From Escherichia coli (GTDB lineage: Bacteria; Pseudomonadota; Gammaproteobacteria; Enterobacterales; Enterobacteriaceae), in NCBI RefSeq assembly GCF_003334255.1, contig NZ_QOWU01000006.1: a DNA stretch of 64,000 nt; one strand, given 5' to 3'. Position 1 is the stretch's first letter, and every line of letters begins with the position of its first letter. The position numbers and the translations under genes were made by a program. The notes beneath the pieces were generated by a model. It saw only the letters and a list, made by a program, of their open reading frames with translations. It did no database searches and was not told the origin of the DNA. Positions 20,058 to 25,149 of the stretch are shown in pieces.

Positions 20058-20873
20058 TCAGCTGTTAAAAGGGGATGTGTTATCCAGCACCGCCTGAATC
20101 ACATTCAGCGCGCCTTGATGATTATTATCATCGGTAGCGTAACGGGCGATTTGTTTAATGTTTTCCGCAGCATTGCCCATCGCAAAGGAATAACGCGCCA
20201 TTTTCAGCATCTCCGCATCGTTACCGCTGTCGCCAATCGCTACCACATTTTGCGGTGACAGATCCCAGCGTTTCAGTAACCGCGAAATACCGTTTGCTTT
20301 ATGTAGACCGGGAATAATCAGGTCGATAAAGCCAAAACCACTGGTGACGGGTTTCATAATGCCATCGAGCGCTATGTGCAGTTTGTCGATCACTAACGGG
20401 ATTTGTTCATCTGGCAGGTTGAGCGAAAACTTGAACAGTACGTCGTCAATCTCCTGATAATCTTTTACAGCTTTCAGGCGATGGTAGTGTTTTGCCATCA
20501 GTGCGACAAATGCTTCGGGGGCATTTTCGCTGACATATGCACTTTGCAGACCGCAGGCGACAAAATTGAGTTGCTTATCTTTTAGCAACTCGCCAATAAC
20601 AATCCGCGATTCATGTCGGGTCAGTTCGCCGTGGAACAGTTGCTTGCCATGTTCGTAAACCAGTGCGCCGTTTTCCGCGACAAAAGAGATCTCATCCTTT
20701 AGCTCAGGAAAGAACGAAATAAGCTGGTAATACTGATTACCGCTGGCGACAACGAACTTAATGCCGCGCTTTTTCAGTTCCTGATATTGCGCCATAAAAT
20801 GTGGTTGGTTGTACGTTTTGGCGTCGTTAAGAAAAGTACCGTCCATGTCTGTGACGATAACTTTTACGCTCAT
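20058..20873 (-). CDS. ybiV: HAD-superfamily (Cof-type) sugar phosphatase YbiV
   Basis: 271 aa; HAD motif I DMDGTF, motif IV GDSGND; strong paralogy to YbjI in this window. Confidence 0.92.
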
Positions 20874-21018
20874 AGGTGTGCTCCTGGCTCGAAAATGAAA
20901 CCGTAACAGTGTAATAACAATGTGACGCAGAGCACAAATTATATTTCGAATGAAAGTAAGGATGAAATTGATGATGTGAATGATTTAGCCCGGCGACGAC
21001 GCCGCCGGGCCGAGGAGA

Positions 21019-23451
21019 TTACAGCATATGTTCAGTACGGGCGATGATATCGTCCTGTGCGTCTGGAGAGAGCGCGGTGAAGAAGGCGGAATAGCCCGCG
21101 ACACGCACTACCAGATCGCGGTACTGATCCGGATGTTTTTTCGCCTCCAGCAGCGTTTCGCGGGAAACGATGTTGTACTGAATATGCCAGCCTTTATGCA
21201 CTTCAAAGAAGGTGCGCAGCAGGATCATCAGTTTCTGCTTGTCAGATTCGTTCTCCAGCGTTGCTGGATTCAGTTTCTGGTTGAGCAACACGCCGCCGAG
21301 AATCGCTGCCGTAGGCAGTTTACCCACCGAGCCAATGACCGCAGTAGGGCCAAGATGATCAGTACCGGAAGCCGGGCTTGCGCCTTCTGCCAGCGGGGTG
21401 TGGGCTTTACGCCCGTCCGGTGTTGCCATAGTCTGCGCGCCAAACGGTACGTTAGCGGAGATAGACGACGTACCCGCGTAATAGTTGCCGCCAACCGGAC
21501 CACGACCGTAGCGTGGGTTATGGTACTGTTTCAGTTCGTCGATATAGGTCTGATAAGCGCGAGCCAGCAGCGTATCGACGGTATCATCGTCGTTGCCGTA
21601 CTTCGGCGCACCGTTAATCAGCCGCTGACGCAGTTGCTCATGAGTCAGGCCATCGAAGTCATCCGCCAGTGCGGCAGCCAGCTGTTGCTGACCAATCGCA
21701 CCCTGTTCAAACACCAGTTTCTTCACTGCCGCCAGGCTGTTGCCGAGGTTGGCAATGCCAACCTGCAGGCCAGAAACCCAGTCATATTTCGCGCCGCCTT
21801 GCTTGATACTTTTCGCTCGCTCAATACAGTCATCCACCAGCGCCGAGCAGAGAATATCGTGTACGTTCTCTTCCAGCATGGTGTCGACGACATATTCGAT
21901 TTCGATTGATTTACGCGTGTAATAACGGATTTGCGTATCCCACGCGTCCATTACTTCATCGAAATTGTTAAAGTTGCCTGCCGACAACGCTTTTTCTTGT
22001 GGCAGGAACACTTTGCCGCTGGTGGCATCACGCCCGCCTTCCAGCGCCGCCAGCATCACGCGGGCGAAGTTGATAAAGCTCATGCCGGTACAGCGATAGC
22101 CCCATTTGCCACCGACGGCGGTTTCGATACAACCAATCGCTGCGTAGTCGTAAGCGTCCTGCGGTTCAATACCGAGTTTAATAAATTCCGGGATCACGAT
22201 TTCGTCGTTGTTGAACGCCGGCATCCCGAAGCCGCAACGGATCACCTGTACGCAGGCGTCGAGGAAATCATTACTCATTCCTGCATGGTAACGCACGCTG
22301 AGGTTAGGCTGAGTGGAACGCAGGCGACCGCAGGATTCGAGGATCGCGTAAGAGAGGGGATTCACTGCATCCATTGGTTGACCATCAACCAGATTTTGTC
22401 CGCCAATGGTAACGTTCTGATACAGCGGACTTCCCGCAGAGGCTTTTGAGTGTGAGCCGGAGCGGATCTTGTTCACTTCCAGCAGTTTCAGCCAGCAGCT
22501 ATGCAGCATCTCGATGGCGTGTTCGCGATCCAGCGTCTGGTTGAGTTCAACGTCGCGGCGATAGTACGGGTAGAGATACTGGTCCATACGACCAAACGAT
22601 ACCGAGTGACCGTTAGATTCGATCTGCAAAATCAATTGGATGAAGTAACACAGTTGCAGCGCCTGCCAGAAAGTCTGCGGCGGCTGGTGGGCGATAAGAT
22701 CGCAGTTTTCTGCCATCGTCAGCAGTTCATCGCGACGGCTTTCGCGAGTTTCGGTAGCAGCCATTTCACGCGCCAGGGCAGCGAAACGTTCAATGTGTTC
22801 ACTGACTGCCACCAGCACGATATCAATCGCTTTCAGGAATTGTTCGCCATGTAAATCTTCCAGCACCGTCAGATTGATGCGCGAGCGACGTTCCGCTACT
22901 TTCTCACGCAGACCATCAAGACCTTTTTCCAGCAGCAGCGGGAAATTCACCGCCAGGTGCGCATCGCCGGAGGTCATATTGCCTTCCGCTTTAATGATTC
23001 CGGTCGCCAGCAGACCTTTTTGCTCATCGGTAAACATGCCGTAGCAGCGATCCTGTACGGTCTGACCGCGCCACCACGGGCACACTTCATGCAGAACGCG
23101 TTTGTTCTCTTCGCTCACCGCAAAGCCAGCACCGGGACGATCTGCCAGATCATCAATCTCTTTTTCGATCCACGAGACAGTATATTCCGGGAAGATCGGC
23201 GCGGCGCGAACTTCGCTTGCCTGGTTGCCAATGATCAACTCATCGTGTTTGATCCAGATGGTGCGATTCGCCAGGTGATGCGCCAGTGCCAGCGCGCGAC
23301 GTACCGGGATCGGCTTATCGAGATGTTGTTGATACATCTCGGTATAGTGCTGCGCGCGCTCGGTACAGACTGGCGGTTTCACAATATGCACCAGCGCATT
23401 TTTGTGCGCTTTAATGCGGTCGCTGAGCGTGTCCAGTTTCAGTGTGGTCAT
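21019..23451 (-). CDS. ybiW: Pyruvate formate-lyase-like glycyl radical enzyme YbiW (PflF)
   Basis: 810 aa; C-terminal glycyl-radical motif RVAGYSAFF; PFL-like fold. Confidence 0.92.
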   Translation of the reverse strand: MTTLKLDTLSDRIKAHKNALVHIVKPPVCTERAQHYTEMYQQHLDKPIPVRRALALAHHLANRTIWIKHDELIIGNQASEVRAAPIFPEYTVSWIEKEIDDLADRPGAGFAVSEENKRVLHEVCPWWRGQTVQDRCYGMFTDEQKGLLATGIIKAEGNMTSGDAHLAVNFPLLLEKGLDGLREKVAERRSRINLTVLEDLHGEQFLKAIDIVLVAVSEHIERFAALAREMAATETRESRRDELLTMAENCDLIAHQPPQTFWQALQLCYFIQLILQIESNGHSVSFGRMDQYLYPYYRRDVELNQTLDREHAIEMLHSCWLKLLEVNKIRSGSHSKASAGSPLYQNVTIGGQNLVDGQPMDAVNPLSYAILESCGRLRSTQPNLSVRYHAGMSNDFLDACVQVIRCGFGMPAFNNDEIVIPEFIKLGIEPQDAYDYAAIGCIETAVGGKWGYRCTGMSFINFARVMLAALEGGRDATSGKVFLPQEKALSAGNFNNFDEVMDAWDTQIRYYTRKSIEIEYVVDTMLEENVHDILCSALVDDCIERAKSIKQGGAKYDWVSGLQVGIANLGNSLAAVKKLVFEQGAIGQQQLAAALADDFDGLTHEQLRQRLINGAPKYGNDDDTVDTLLARAYQTYIDELKQYHNPRYGRGPVGGNYYAGTSSISANVPFGAQTMATPDGRKAHTPLAEGASPASGTDHLGPTAVIGSVGKLPTAAILGGVLLNQKLNPATLENESDKQKLMILLRTFFEVHKGWHIQYNIVSRETLLEAKKHPDQYRDLVVRVAGYSAFFTALSPDAQDDIIARTEHML

Positions 23452-24356: not shown

Positions 24357-24486
24357 AGTTGCCTCTCTGTTTCGTTCAAACATTAAAATACTTTCGAATG
24401 AAAGTTAGATTGATGTGCGTCAACTGTTCAGAGAGTTTTCCCGTGATAGTCTACATTCAGACAAAAAGTACATTTTGAGGATGGTT

Positions 24487-25149
24487 ATGGAACTGTATCT
24501 GGATACTTCAGACGTTGTTGCGGTGAAGGCGCTGTCACGTATTTTTCCGCTGGCGGGTGTGACCACTAACCCAAGCATTATCGCCGCGGGTAAAAAACCG
24601 CTGGATGTTGTGCTTCCGCAACTTCATGAAGCGATGGGCGGTCAGGGGCGTCTGTTTGCCCAGGTAATGGCTACCACTGCTGAAGGGATGGTGAATGACG
24701 CACGTAAATTGCGTTCTATTATTGCGGATATCGTGGTGAAAGTTCCGGTGACCGCCGAGGGGCTGGCAGCTATTAAGATGTTAAAAGCGGAAGGGATTCC
24801 AACGCTGGGAACCGCGGTATATGGCGCAGCACAAGGGCTGCTGTCGGCGCTGGCAGGTGCGGAATATGTTGCGCCTTACGTTAATCGTATTGATGCTCAG
24901 GGCGGTAGCGGCATTCAGACTGTGACCGACTTACACCAGTTATTGAAAATGCATGCGCCGCAGGCGAAAGTGCTGGCAGCGAGTTTCAAAACCCCGCGTC
25001 AGGCGCTGGACTGCTTACTGGCAGGATGTGAATCAATTACGCTGCCACTGGATGTGGCACAACAGATGATTAGCTATCCGGCGGTGGAAGCCGCTGTGGC
25101 GAAGTTTGAACAGGACTGGCTGGGAGCGTTTGGCAGAACGTCGATTTAA
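24487..25149 (+). CDS. fsaA: Fructose-6-phosphate aldolase 1 (transaldolase-like)
   Basis: 220-aa product [30 protein letters not shown]...; ATG 24487 with GAGG RBS. Track ORF start 24415 is an extension. Confidence 0.9.

Follow-up and report, generated by a model that had tools for sequence, protein, structure and literature searches.

Positions 20058-25149 of a 64-kb stretch of Escherichia coli DNA, hereafter the window, hold fsaA, ybiY-ybiW and ybiV, a gene set centred on the glycyl radical enzyme (GRE) YbiW. This analysis concerns the reaction of YbiW, the pathway to which it belongs and the regulation of the set. Three of the genes lie on the minus strand. The first, ybiY (23457-24356), encodes the radical S-adenosylmethionine (SAM) activase of YbiW, a protein of 299 amino acids from MIFNIQ in a longest open reading frame (ORF) that reaches 24383. 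ybiW itself (21019-23451) encodes 810 amino acids, with the motif RVAGYSAFF at residues 783-791 and the key residues H165, H282/S283, C441, E443 and G786. The third gene, ybiV, also named supH (20058-20873), encodes a Cof-type HAD-IIB sugar phosphatase of 271 amino acids with the nucleophile motif DMDGT. Divergent from them on the plus strand is fsaA (24487-25149), which encodes a class I fructose-6-phosphate aldolase (FSA) of 220 amino acids that begins MELYL and uses Lys85 as its Schiff-base residue. Its annotated and conserved start is the ATG at 24487; a GTG upstream at 24415 only sets the longest ORF. The RefSeq annotation shows these four genes too, with ybiU and ybiT to one side and moeB and moeA to the other. 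An earlier reading of these letters made from the sequence alone (the sequence-only reading) had described three co-directional minus-strand genes beside a divergent fsaA, and that arrangement, the motifs it quoted and the 5-nt gap between ybiY and ybiW are all present in the ORF list and motif positions. Its description of the gaps as short applies to that gap and fails for ybiW and ybiV, which are 145 nt apart.

The locus is core E. coli chromosome and not an island. Its DNA is 100% identical to that of the E. coli chromosomes G1/2 and G6/7 and of others, and the stretch was found in all 5426 of 5426 complete E. coli genomes at a coverage of at least 80%. Its base composition is unremarkable. 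Gene order and chromosomal position are the same as in K-12, and the sequences between ybiW and ybiV and between ybiV and ybiU do not differ from those of that strain. YbiY and YbiU are also identical to their K-12 counterparts, YbiV carries four substitutions, FsaA keeps 217 of its 220 residues (three substitutions) and YbiW keeps 806 of 810, the changes being E184K, A245T, H474R and D769E. None of the changes in YbiW falls at H165, H282/S283, C441, E443 or G786, or in any of the conserved motifs that we examined.

Family profiles place all four proteins. YbiW matches TIGR01774, the PFL2/glycerol-dehydratase subfamily, at 1409.2 bits (cut-off 678.2), with residues 8-810 on profile positions 1-786. 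YbiY matches TIGR02494 at 370 bits (cut-off 174) and stays below the cut-off of TIGR02493 (168 against 232). YbiV matches the Cof model TIGR00099 at 221 bits (cut-off 137), with D9-M-D11 inside TDMDGT, and FsaA matches both NF009296 (451, cut-off 306) and TIGR00875 (280, cut-off 246), with K85 in IVVKVPV. YbiY has its CX3CX2C motif, CSLGCRWC, at residues 25-32; a further CX3CX2C (51-58) supplies the auxiliary-cluster cysteines 51, 55 and 58. YbiW carries the glycyl radical motif RVxG[FWY], in which G786 is the radical glycine and aligns with G763 of 1R8W, the B12-independent glycerol dehydratase of Clostridium butyricum. The sequence-only reading of a GRE and its activase beside a divergent FSA aldolase, with a Cof-type HAD protein in YbiV, is borne out by these scores, motifs and positions.

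The active site of YbiW was aligned with those of K-12 PflD and PflB, the C. butyricum glycerol dehydratase and six distant relatives, a check that had been proposed along with the sequence-only reading. The Cys loop of YbiW, G440-C441-I442-E443, has a single cysteine with a glutamate two residues on and aligns with G-C433-V-E435 of 1R8W, and His165 and G-H282-S283 align with His164 and H281/S282 of the same enzyme. This is the loop of an eliminase-type GRE and differs from that of PflB, which has a Cys-Cys pair (A-C-C-V-S against G-C441-I-E443-T in YbiW) and an arginine in place of His165. The PflB-like active site that would have counted against the sequence-only reading is therefore not what YbiW has. 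Overall, YbiW is 39% identical to PflD, 38% identical to glycerol dehydratase and 24% identical to PflB, and against the PflB model TIGR01255 it scores 162.1 bits where the cut-off is 994.2. PflB and its activase PflA share the glycyl radical domain and radical-SAM activation with YbiW and YbiY, but PflA lacks the extra ferredoxin-like cysteine clusters present in YbiY. A GYRCTGMSF segment and a six-residue YGRGPV insertion (648-653) are common to YbiW and its nearest relatives (43-54% identity) and missing from PflD, PflB and glycerol dehydratase. The closest PDB matches of YbiW are 8ID7 and 8YJN, which are this very protein under the title "Probable dehydratase YbiW", and 8YJO, its paralogue PflD. 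YbiV is represented by structures 1RLM and 2HF2.

The glycerol dehydratase 1R8W is a member of the same family (TIGR01774) as YbiW (E = 1.6e-163). Together with other eliminase GREs (propanediol dehydratase, CutC, HypD and sulfopropanediol dehydratase) it shares with YbiW the RVAGYSA and GCxE motifs, the active-site histidine and the His-Ser pair, and the chemistry, a ketyl radical followed by beta-elimination, is likely the same. The leaving group differs, being the ring oxygen of a cyclic ether in YbiW and water or an amine in the eliminases. Asp447 of glycerol dehydratase is not kept in YbiW, whose clade has the GYRCTGMSF and YGRGPV elements of its own, and none of the NCBIfam equivalog models for eliminase GREs reaches its cut-off with YbiW.

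1,5-Anhydroglucitol (1,5-AG) is 1-deoxyglucose, a common compound in food and blood, and its 6-phosphate (AG6P) is a non-metabolisable, dead-end analogue of glucose-6-phosphate. We put at about 0.9 the probability that the locus in the window is the one known from K-12 as the E. coli "anhydroglycolysis" locus. According to section 5.1 of a review (PMC12441222), YbiW converts AG6P to 1-deoxy-fructose-6-phosphate (Ma et al., JACS 2024;146:26187). The same section states that 1,5-AG and 1,5-anhydromannitol are first phosphorylated by a phosphotransferase system (PTS), that YbiW and PflD cleave 1,5-AG6P and 1,5-anhydromannitol-6-phosphate (1,5-AM6P) to 1-deoxyfructose-6-phosphate in a reaction that requires the glycyl radical, and that these pathways support growth on 1,5-AG in E. 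coli and in many further gut bacteria, which its authors expect under strict anaerobiosis only (PMC12441222). The sequence-only reading, which argued for a sugar-phosphate or polyol-phosphate substrate rather than pyruvate, was correct in this, the active site not being PflB-like and the substrate, by that review, being AG6P; its description of the substrate as uncertain is outdated, since the reaction was reported in 2024 and structures 8ID7, 8YJN and 8YJO have been deposited. Compared with the K-12 system of YbiW/YbiY and FsaA (8ID7, 8YJN), the locus in the window is the same in place and gene order, with only allelic differences and none at a catalytic residue.

The route would begin with uptake and phosphorylation of 1,5-AG by a PTS encoded elsewhere. 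YbiY, with its [4Fe-4S] cluster and SAM, would put a radical on Gly786 of YbiW, from which it would move to Cys441. The Cys441 thiyl radical would then abstract the C2 hydrogen of AG6P, with Glu443 taking the proton of the C2 hydroxyl. The ketyl radical would expel the ring oxygen from C1 as the C1-O5 bond undergoes beta-scission, with His165 perhaps serving as the acid, and the C1 radical would regain a hydrogen from Cys441. The net reaction would be a ring-opening isomerisation in which no water is lost. We infer these steps from the conserved residues and from the established chemistry of eliminase-type GREs. AG6P and 1-deoxy-fructose-6-phosphate are isomers, so the word "dehydratase" in the PDB title would be a misnomer. 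That YbiW and PflD take substrates that are C2 epimers and form one product fits hydrogen abstraction at C2. Finally, the neighbouring aldolase would cleave 1-deoxy-fructose-6-phosphate and so feed glycolysis. FsaA or its paralogue FsaB reportedly splits this compound into glyceraldehyde-3-phosphate and hydroxyacetone, and GldA reportedly reduces the hydroxyacetone to 1,2-propanediol. FSA takes hydroxyacetone as a donor, and its physiological role was termed enigmatic in 2020 (PMC7767278).

The pairing of GRE and FSA supports a place for the aldolase in the pathway: fsa is divergent from ybiY-ybiW in four other genera, and K-12 has a second GRE/FSA pair. At minute 89 of K-12 the order is gldA-fsaB-ptsA<>frwC-frwB-pflD-pflC-frwD, which places a paralogous GRE and activase (PflD/PflC) beside a paralogous FSA, with GldA and the Frw PTS. 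With this gldA-fsaB/pflD-pflC set the pairing of GRE and FSA is found twice in one genome. PflD acts on 1,5-AM6P, the C2 epimer of the substrate of YbiW, and gives the same product, 1-deoxy-fructose-6-phosphate (PMC12441222). It differs from YbiW in having A-S-S where YbiW has G-H-S (281-283), as well as in lacking the YGRGPV insertion, and its locus (8YJO for the enzyme) encodes its own PTS and GldA, both of which are missing from the ybiW locus. The ptsA-fsaB-gldA operon is activated by FNR (PMC3688515 Table S8).

The neighbourhood of ybiW was compared in five orthologues (about 88-91% identity) from other genera of the Enterobacterales. Yersinia similis has fsa<>ybiY-ybiW-DeoR, Mixta calida DeoR-DUF1479-fsa<>ybiY-ybiW, Brenneria DeoR-fsa<>ybiY-ybiW, Enterobacillus fsa<>ybiY-ybiW and Kosakonia moeA-moeB-ybiY-ybiW-ybiV-ybiU with no fsa. 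Beside ybiY/ybiW there is thus an fsa gene in four of the five genera, a DeoR-family regulator in three, ybiU in two and ybiV in one. The orthologous neighbours are 80-82% (FsaA), 71-85% (YbiU) and 77% (YbiV) identical to those of the window. The DeoR-family gene of Yersinia has a single matching place in 5423 of 5426 E. coli genomes, at 68.6% nucleotide identity, and among the matches listed that place is yciT. More distant relatives stood apart from these counts: the contigs of P0122 and P0123 are too short to show neighbours, and P0124 and P0126, which have different neighbourhoods, were left out of the orthologue counts.

A palindromic operator ties these genes together. Copy 1 (24390-24405), between ybiY and fsaA, is the perfect palindrome ACTTTC-GAAT-GAAAGT, presumed to be a site for the DeoR-type regulator YciT. 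Copy 2 (20942-20957), with two mismatches, lies upstream of ybiV and overlaps a TATAAT there, and copy 3 (19922-19937; ACTTTCATTCGAAACC), also with two mismatches, lies 16 nt upstream of the ybiU ATG. The exact 12-mer core TTTCGAATGAAA occurs three times in the 64 kb, each time upstream of one of these targets (ybiY/fsaA, ybiV and ybiU), and at one mismatch or fewer the core has four matches in the window against 0.65 expected. The loose pattern ACTTTC-N4-GAAAGT at up to two mismatches is not enriched in the window by itself (four against 2.1 expected), and the weight of the operator lies solely in the exact 12-mer core and in conservation across genera. That conservation is extensive. Between fsa and ybiY the core CTTTCnTTCGAAA does not vary among five genera, and the operator core is kept in Yersinia, Mixta, Brenneria, Enterobacillus and Kosakonia, the last of which carries the operator at the same three positions. 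A scan at one mismatch or fewer found it in six of six Enterobacterales loci, with a second Mixta copy upstream of the ybiU orthologue and no match in shuffled sequence.

The palindrome between the FNR box and the ybiY -10 element is likely the site of the YciT repressor. The orthologue of YciT is adjacent to the locus in Yersinia, Mixta and Brenneria. A published ChIP-exo (chromatin immunoprecipitation with exonuclease) study places a YciT peak at ybiUVWY/fsaA, depicts an "operon ybiUVWY" and counts ybiV among the targets of YciT. In a published massively-parallel-reporter study YciT acts as a repressor of the anaerobically active ybiYW promoter. The three operator copies, their conservation across genera and the ChIP-exo and repression data together argue for membership in a YciT regulon. 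YciT would probably respond to a phosphorylated intermediate of the pathway. The unit extends beyond 20058-25149, the range first given for it: ybiU, past the edge, bears the same operator. A looser copy of the operator, CCTTTCGGGTGAAAGG, was seen at 6419-6434, about 90 nt upstream of ybiO, a gene that the ChIP-exo study reports as a YciT target.

A second regulator meets YciT between ybiY and fsaA. The FNR box TTGATGTGCGTCAA (24410-24423) has one mismatch to TTGAT-N4-ATCAA, is conserved in five genera and lies 20 bp farther from ybiY than operator copy 1. Myers et al. 2013 list this very sequence as a predicted FNR site and report a ChIP-seq peak there, at ybiY/fsaA (PMC3688515 Tables S5, S6). 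We found no link between ybiY and FNR in the main texts of the literature; the link stands in the supplementary tables of PMC3688515. The FNR consensus at one mismatch or fewer is not enriched in the window (five matches against 2.8 expected), and the weight of the box lies in its positional conservation and the published ChIP peak. With this region bound by both YciT and FNR in published ChIP, fsaA does share regulation with the ybiY side; the lack of shared regulation that would have told against the sequence-only reading does not apply to fsaA.

The predicted promoters would put the FNR box to use in both directions. On the ybiY side a candidate -10, TTTAAT (24382-24387, minus strand), is conserved in four of the five genera of alignment A1 and reads TCAAAT in Mixta; the start would be near 24375, judged by the spacing to the FNR box. 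On the fsaA side an extended -10, TG-a-TAGTCT (24444-24452, plus strand), is predicted, with a start near 24459, and a TAnACT-type element aligns with it in Yersinia, Mixta and Brenneria. The box would then lie midway between the divergent starts, at about -41.5 for ybiY and about -42.5 for fsaA, a position from which FNR would give anaerobic activation of both, and operator copy 1 would span roughly -30 to -15 relative to the predicted ybiY start. A simple promoter scan found neither of these promoters; its sole match on the ybiY side overlaps the start codon. An "activator" footprint left without a name in the reporter study of ybiYW is probably that of FNR. A ybiU promoter picked by eye, TTGCAT-16-TATATT, was dropped as a poor match to the -35 consensus.

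Several points weigh against the reading of the locus as an anhydroglycolysis locus under YciT and FNR. FNR binds here with no FNR-dependent change in expression in glucose minimal medium (PMC3688515 Table S9); in our model continued repression by YciT would account for this silence. The -41.5 spacing is predicted from the -10 elements alone. A single laboratory is the source of the function of YbiW, no equivalog model in NCBIfam (release 20) covers the enzyme, and the protein is named "glycyl radical protein" in RefSeq and "putative pyruvate formate lyase" in K-12. Kosakonia has ybiY-ybiW-ybiV-ybiU with no adjacent fsa. In the accessible part of PMC9055928, YbiW was handled as a formate acetyltransferase on the basis of annotation, and the activity quoted there is that of TdcE only. 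Finally, the support for the steps through FsaA, hydroxyacetone and GldA is indirect.

Whether ybiV belongs to the same transcript is a separate question. That ybiV-ybiW-ybiY form one operon, with YbiV as a dedicated step of the same catabolic pathway, we consider unlikely. The genes are co-directional, no canonical terminator was found between ybiW and ybiV, ybiV bears the same operator, and the ChIP-exo study draws the genes as one operon. A Cof-type HAD protein also occurs near a 54%-identical YbiW-like gene in a distant locus (L006), though it is only 25% identical to YbiV. Against this, the 145-nt gap contains an 11-bp GC-rich hairpin (20987-21011, minus strand) that begins 7 nt past the ybiW stop, has no U tract and folds at -22.5 kcal/mol (z = -4.06, with none of 200 shuffles as good). 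It may act as a partial terminator, or it may stabilise the 3' end of the ybiYW mRNA. ybiV has a promoter-like TATAAT of its own (20943-20938, minus strand), overlapped by its own operator copy, and its sigma-70 ChIP peak is the stronger under aerobic conditions (PMC3688515 Table S2), in contrast to the ybiYW promoter, which is active anaerobically. The gene is not at the locus in Yersinia, Mixta, Brenneria or Enterobacillus, and the reporter study treats the operon as ybiYW. Past the ybiV stop, by 8 nt, lies an intrinsic-terminator-like hairpin with a T-rich tail (20030-20050, minus strand; -14.5 kcal/mol, z = -3.37). With its own TATAAT, the aerobic sigma-70 peak and the hairpins, ybiV seems to belong to the regulon with a promoter of its own and not to be carried on the ybiYW mRNA. 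The earlier placing of ybiV in one transcription unit and pathway with ybiW is not supported, since the gap, the hairpin, the separate -10 and the presence of ybiV beside ybiW in one of five genera all speak against it.

In metabolic terms, too, YbiV has no obvious place in the catabolic route, because a phosphatase would undo the phosphorylation by the PTS. YbiV is a promiscuous hexose-phosphate phosphatase, and its use on mannose-6-phosphate has been published. Most likely it would relieve a build-up of AG6P or similar sugar phosphates, and would not act as a catabolic step. One protein from a single E. coli contig (P0007), which corresponds to 20058-23451 of the window, is a 1047-residue fusion in which YbiW residues 1-748 run through the translated gap between the genes into full-length YbiV. 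The glycyl radical domain is missing from it, and presumably it reflects a natural deletion, or an artefact of assembly, with YbiW inactivated as a result.

The other gene marked by the operator is ybiU (18641-19906, minus strand), seen as an ORF and in RefSeq just beyond 20058-25149, on the same strand as ybiV and downstream of the terminator-like hairpin of that gene. It encodes a DUF1479 (Gig2-like) protein whose structures 2DBI, 2DBN and 2CSG were deposited as hypothetical proteins. The HxD...H motif, with HTD at residue 203, is typical of Fe(II)/2-oxoglutarate oxygenases. YbiU seems to be a conserved part of the regulon to which the oxygen-sensitive YbiW belongs, which is supported by the operator copy that its orthologues keep in E. 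coli, Kosakonia and Mixta. A literature search for a function of DUF1479/GIG2 found none. The K-12 pathway, in the accessible part of its published account, gives no role to YbiV or YbiU, and we found no pathway role for either in the literature that could be read.

A doubtful but possible extension, in which the published pathway would be only a part of a larger unit, is a five-gene YciT/FNR regulon (ybiU, ybiV, ybiY-ybiW and fsaA) in which YbiV and YbiU form an oxygen-tolerant arm for handling AG6P. We speculate that in such an arm YbiV would dephosphorylate AG6P, as a bacterial counterpart of the human metabolite-repair phosphatase G6PC3, and that YbiU might take the same compound, or a related anhydro-sugar phosphate, as its substrate once oxygen has inactivated YbiW. 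A conceivable reaction of YbiU, equally speculative, is a hydroxylation at C1 that would give glucose-6-phosphate directly.

A highly improbable alternative is that AG6P is only one of the substrates of YbiW, or not its main physiological one, and that another sugar or polyol phosphate is mainly used. Distant YbiW-like proteins (43-44% identity) with the clade signatures GYRxxGM and the RxGxGP insertion do adjoin quite different genes, and in the RefSeq annotation of the locus the E. coli ybiW region encodes no 1,5-AG PTS. However, the pathway is reported to permit growth on 1,5-AG (PMC12441222), two structures of YbiW and one of PflD have been deposited separately, and the pairing with a hydroxyacetone-using aldolase fits a 1-deoxy-ketose product. 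Moreover, in Yersinia enterocolitica ybiYW is inserted between sgrR and sgrS, a glucose-phosphate-stress locus, which fits a glucose-6-phosphate analogue as substrate (PMC2760817).

Among the distant loci, those with the 43-44% identical enzymes (L012 and L013), which carry the clade signature motifs, have as neighbours a ribulose-phosphate 3-epimerase, SorC-type regulators, ABC sugar transporters, and an aldo-keto reductase or a 2-oxoacid dehydrogenase complex. These enzymes probably act on different, uncharacterised sugar-phosphate substrates. Locus L006 (GCA_002841395.1, 5258-15652) has its 54%-identical YbiW-like gene directly after a ROK-family sugar kinase, in place of a PTS. Its surroundings include a DeoR regulator with 36% identity to YciT, the Cof-type HAD protein, a lyxose-isomerase-like gene and a second GRE with its activase. 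This locus may be a kinase-dependent variant of the pathway.

The older annotation (pflF/pflE) of YbiW as a pyruvate or 2-ketobutyrate formate-lyase isoenzyme is hardly tenable: the K-12 RefSeq product name preserves it, PDB 6XS4, a YbiW orthologue of 95% similarity, was deposited as "Formate C-acetyltransferase", and PMC9055928 counts YbiW as one of four formate acetyltransferases of E. coli, but its accessible part follows annotation and gives no activity value for YbiW, a different reaction is reported for the enzyme (PMC12441222), His165 replaces the arginine of PflB, and the Cys loop, the 24% identity and the TIGR01255 score below cut-off refute this identity in practice.

The locus, its enzyme, substrate, product and structures were thus already known from work published in 2024. 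What is new here is modest, namely the model of a shared operator and promoters and the pointer to YbiU and YbiV. A warning about annotation is in order, as in RefSeq and NCBIfam YbiW still goes under the name of a generic glycyl radical protein or of a pyruvate formate-lyase, and the reporter study, a preprint first posted in 2025 (version 2026), still calls ybiYW functionally unannotated, overlooking the 2024 paper. Brought together, the FNR ChIP, the YciT ChIP-exo and reporter assays, and the enzymology merge into one testable promoter model. YbiU (DUF1479, structures solved) and YbiV stand out as conserved regulon members with no assigned role. 1,5-AG is a clinical marker of glycaemia, and its 6-phosphate causes neutropenia in patients with G6PC3 deficiency and glycogen storage disease type Ib. 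The handling of 1,5-AG by gut bacteria, with and without oxygen, is therefore of some medical interest.

The window aligns in one piece with the chromosomes G6/7 and G8. In strain G1/2, otherwise identical, an IS1A insertion splits deoR; the window has no such insertion in its deoR region (about 43000-45200). Rfam families were not found inside 20058-25149. Outside it, those above the gathering score were naRNA4 (CssrE, a REP-type element) at 25238-25315, between fsaA and moeB, and again at 61700-61780, the small RNA RybB at 48924-49002, and ES036 (CssrF) at 60678-60720.

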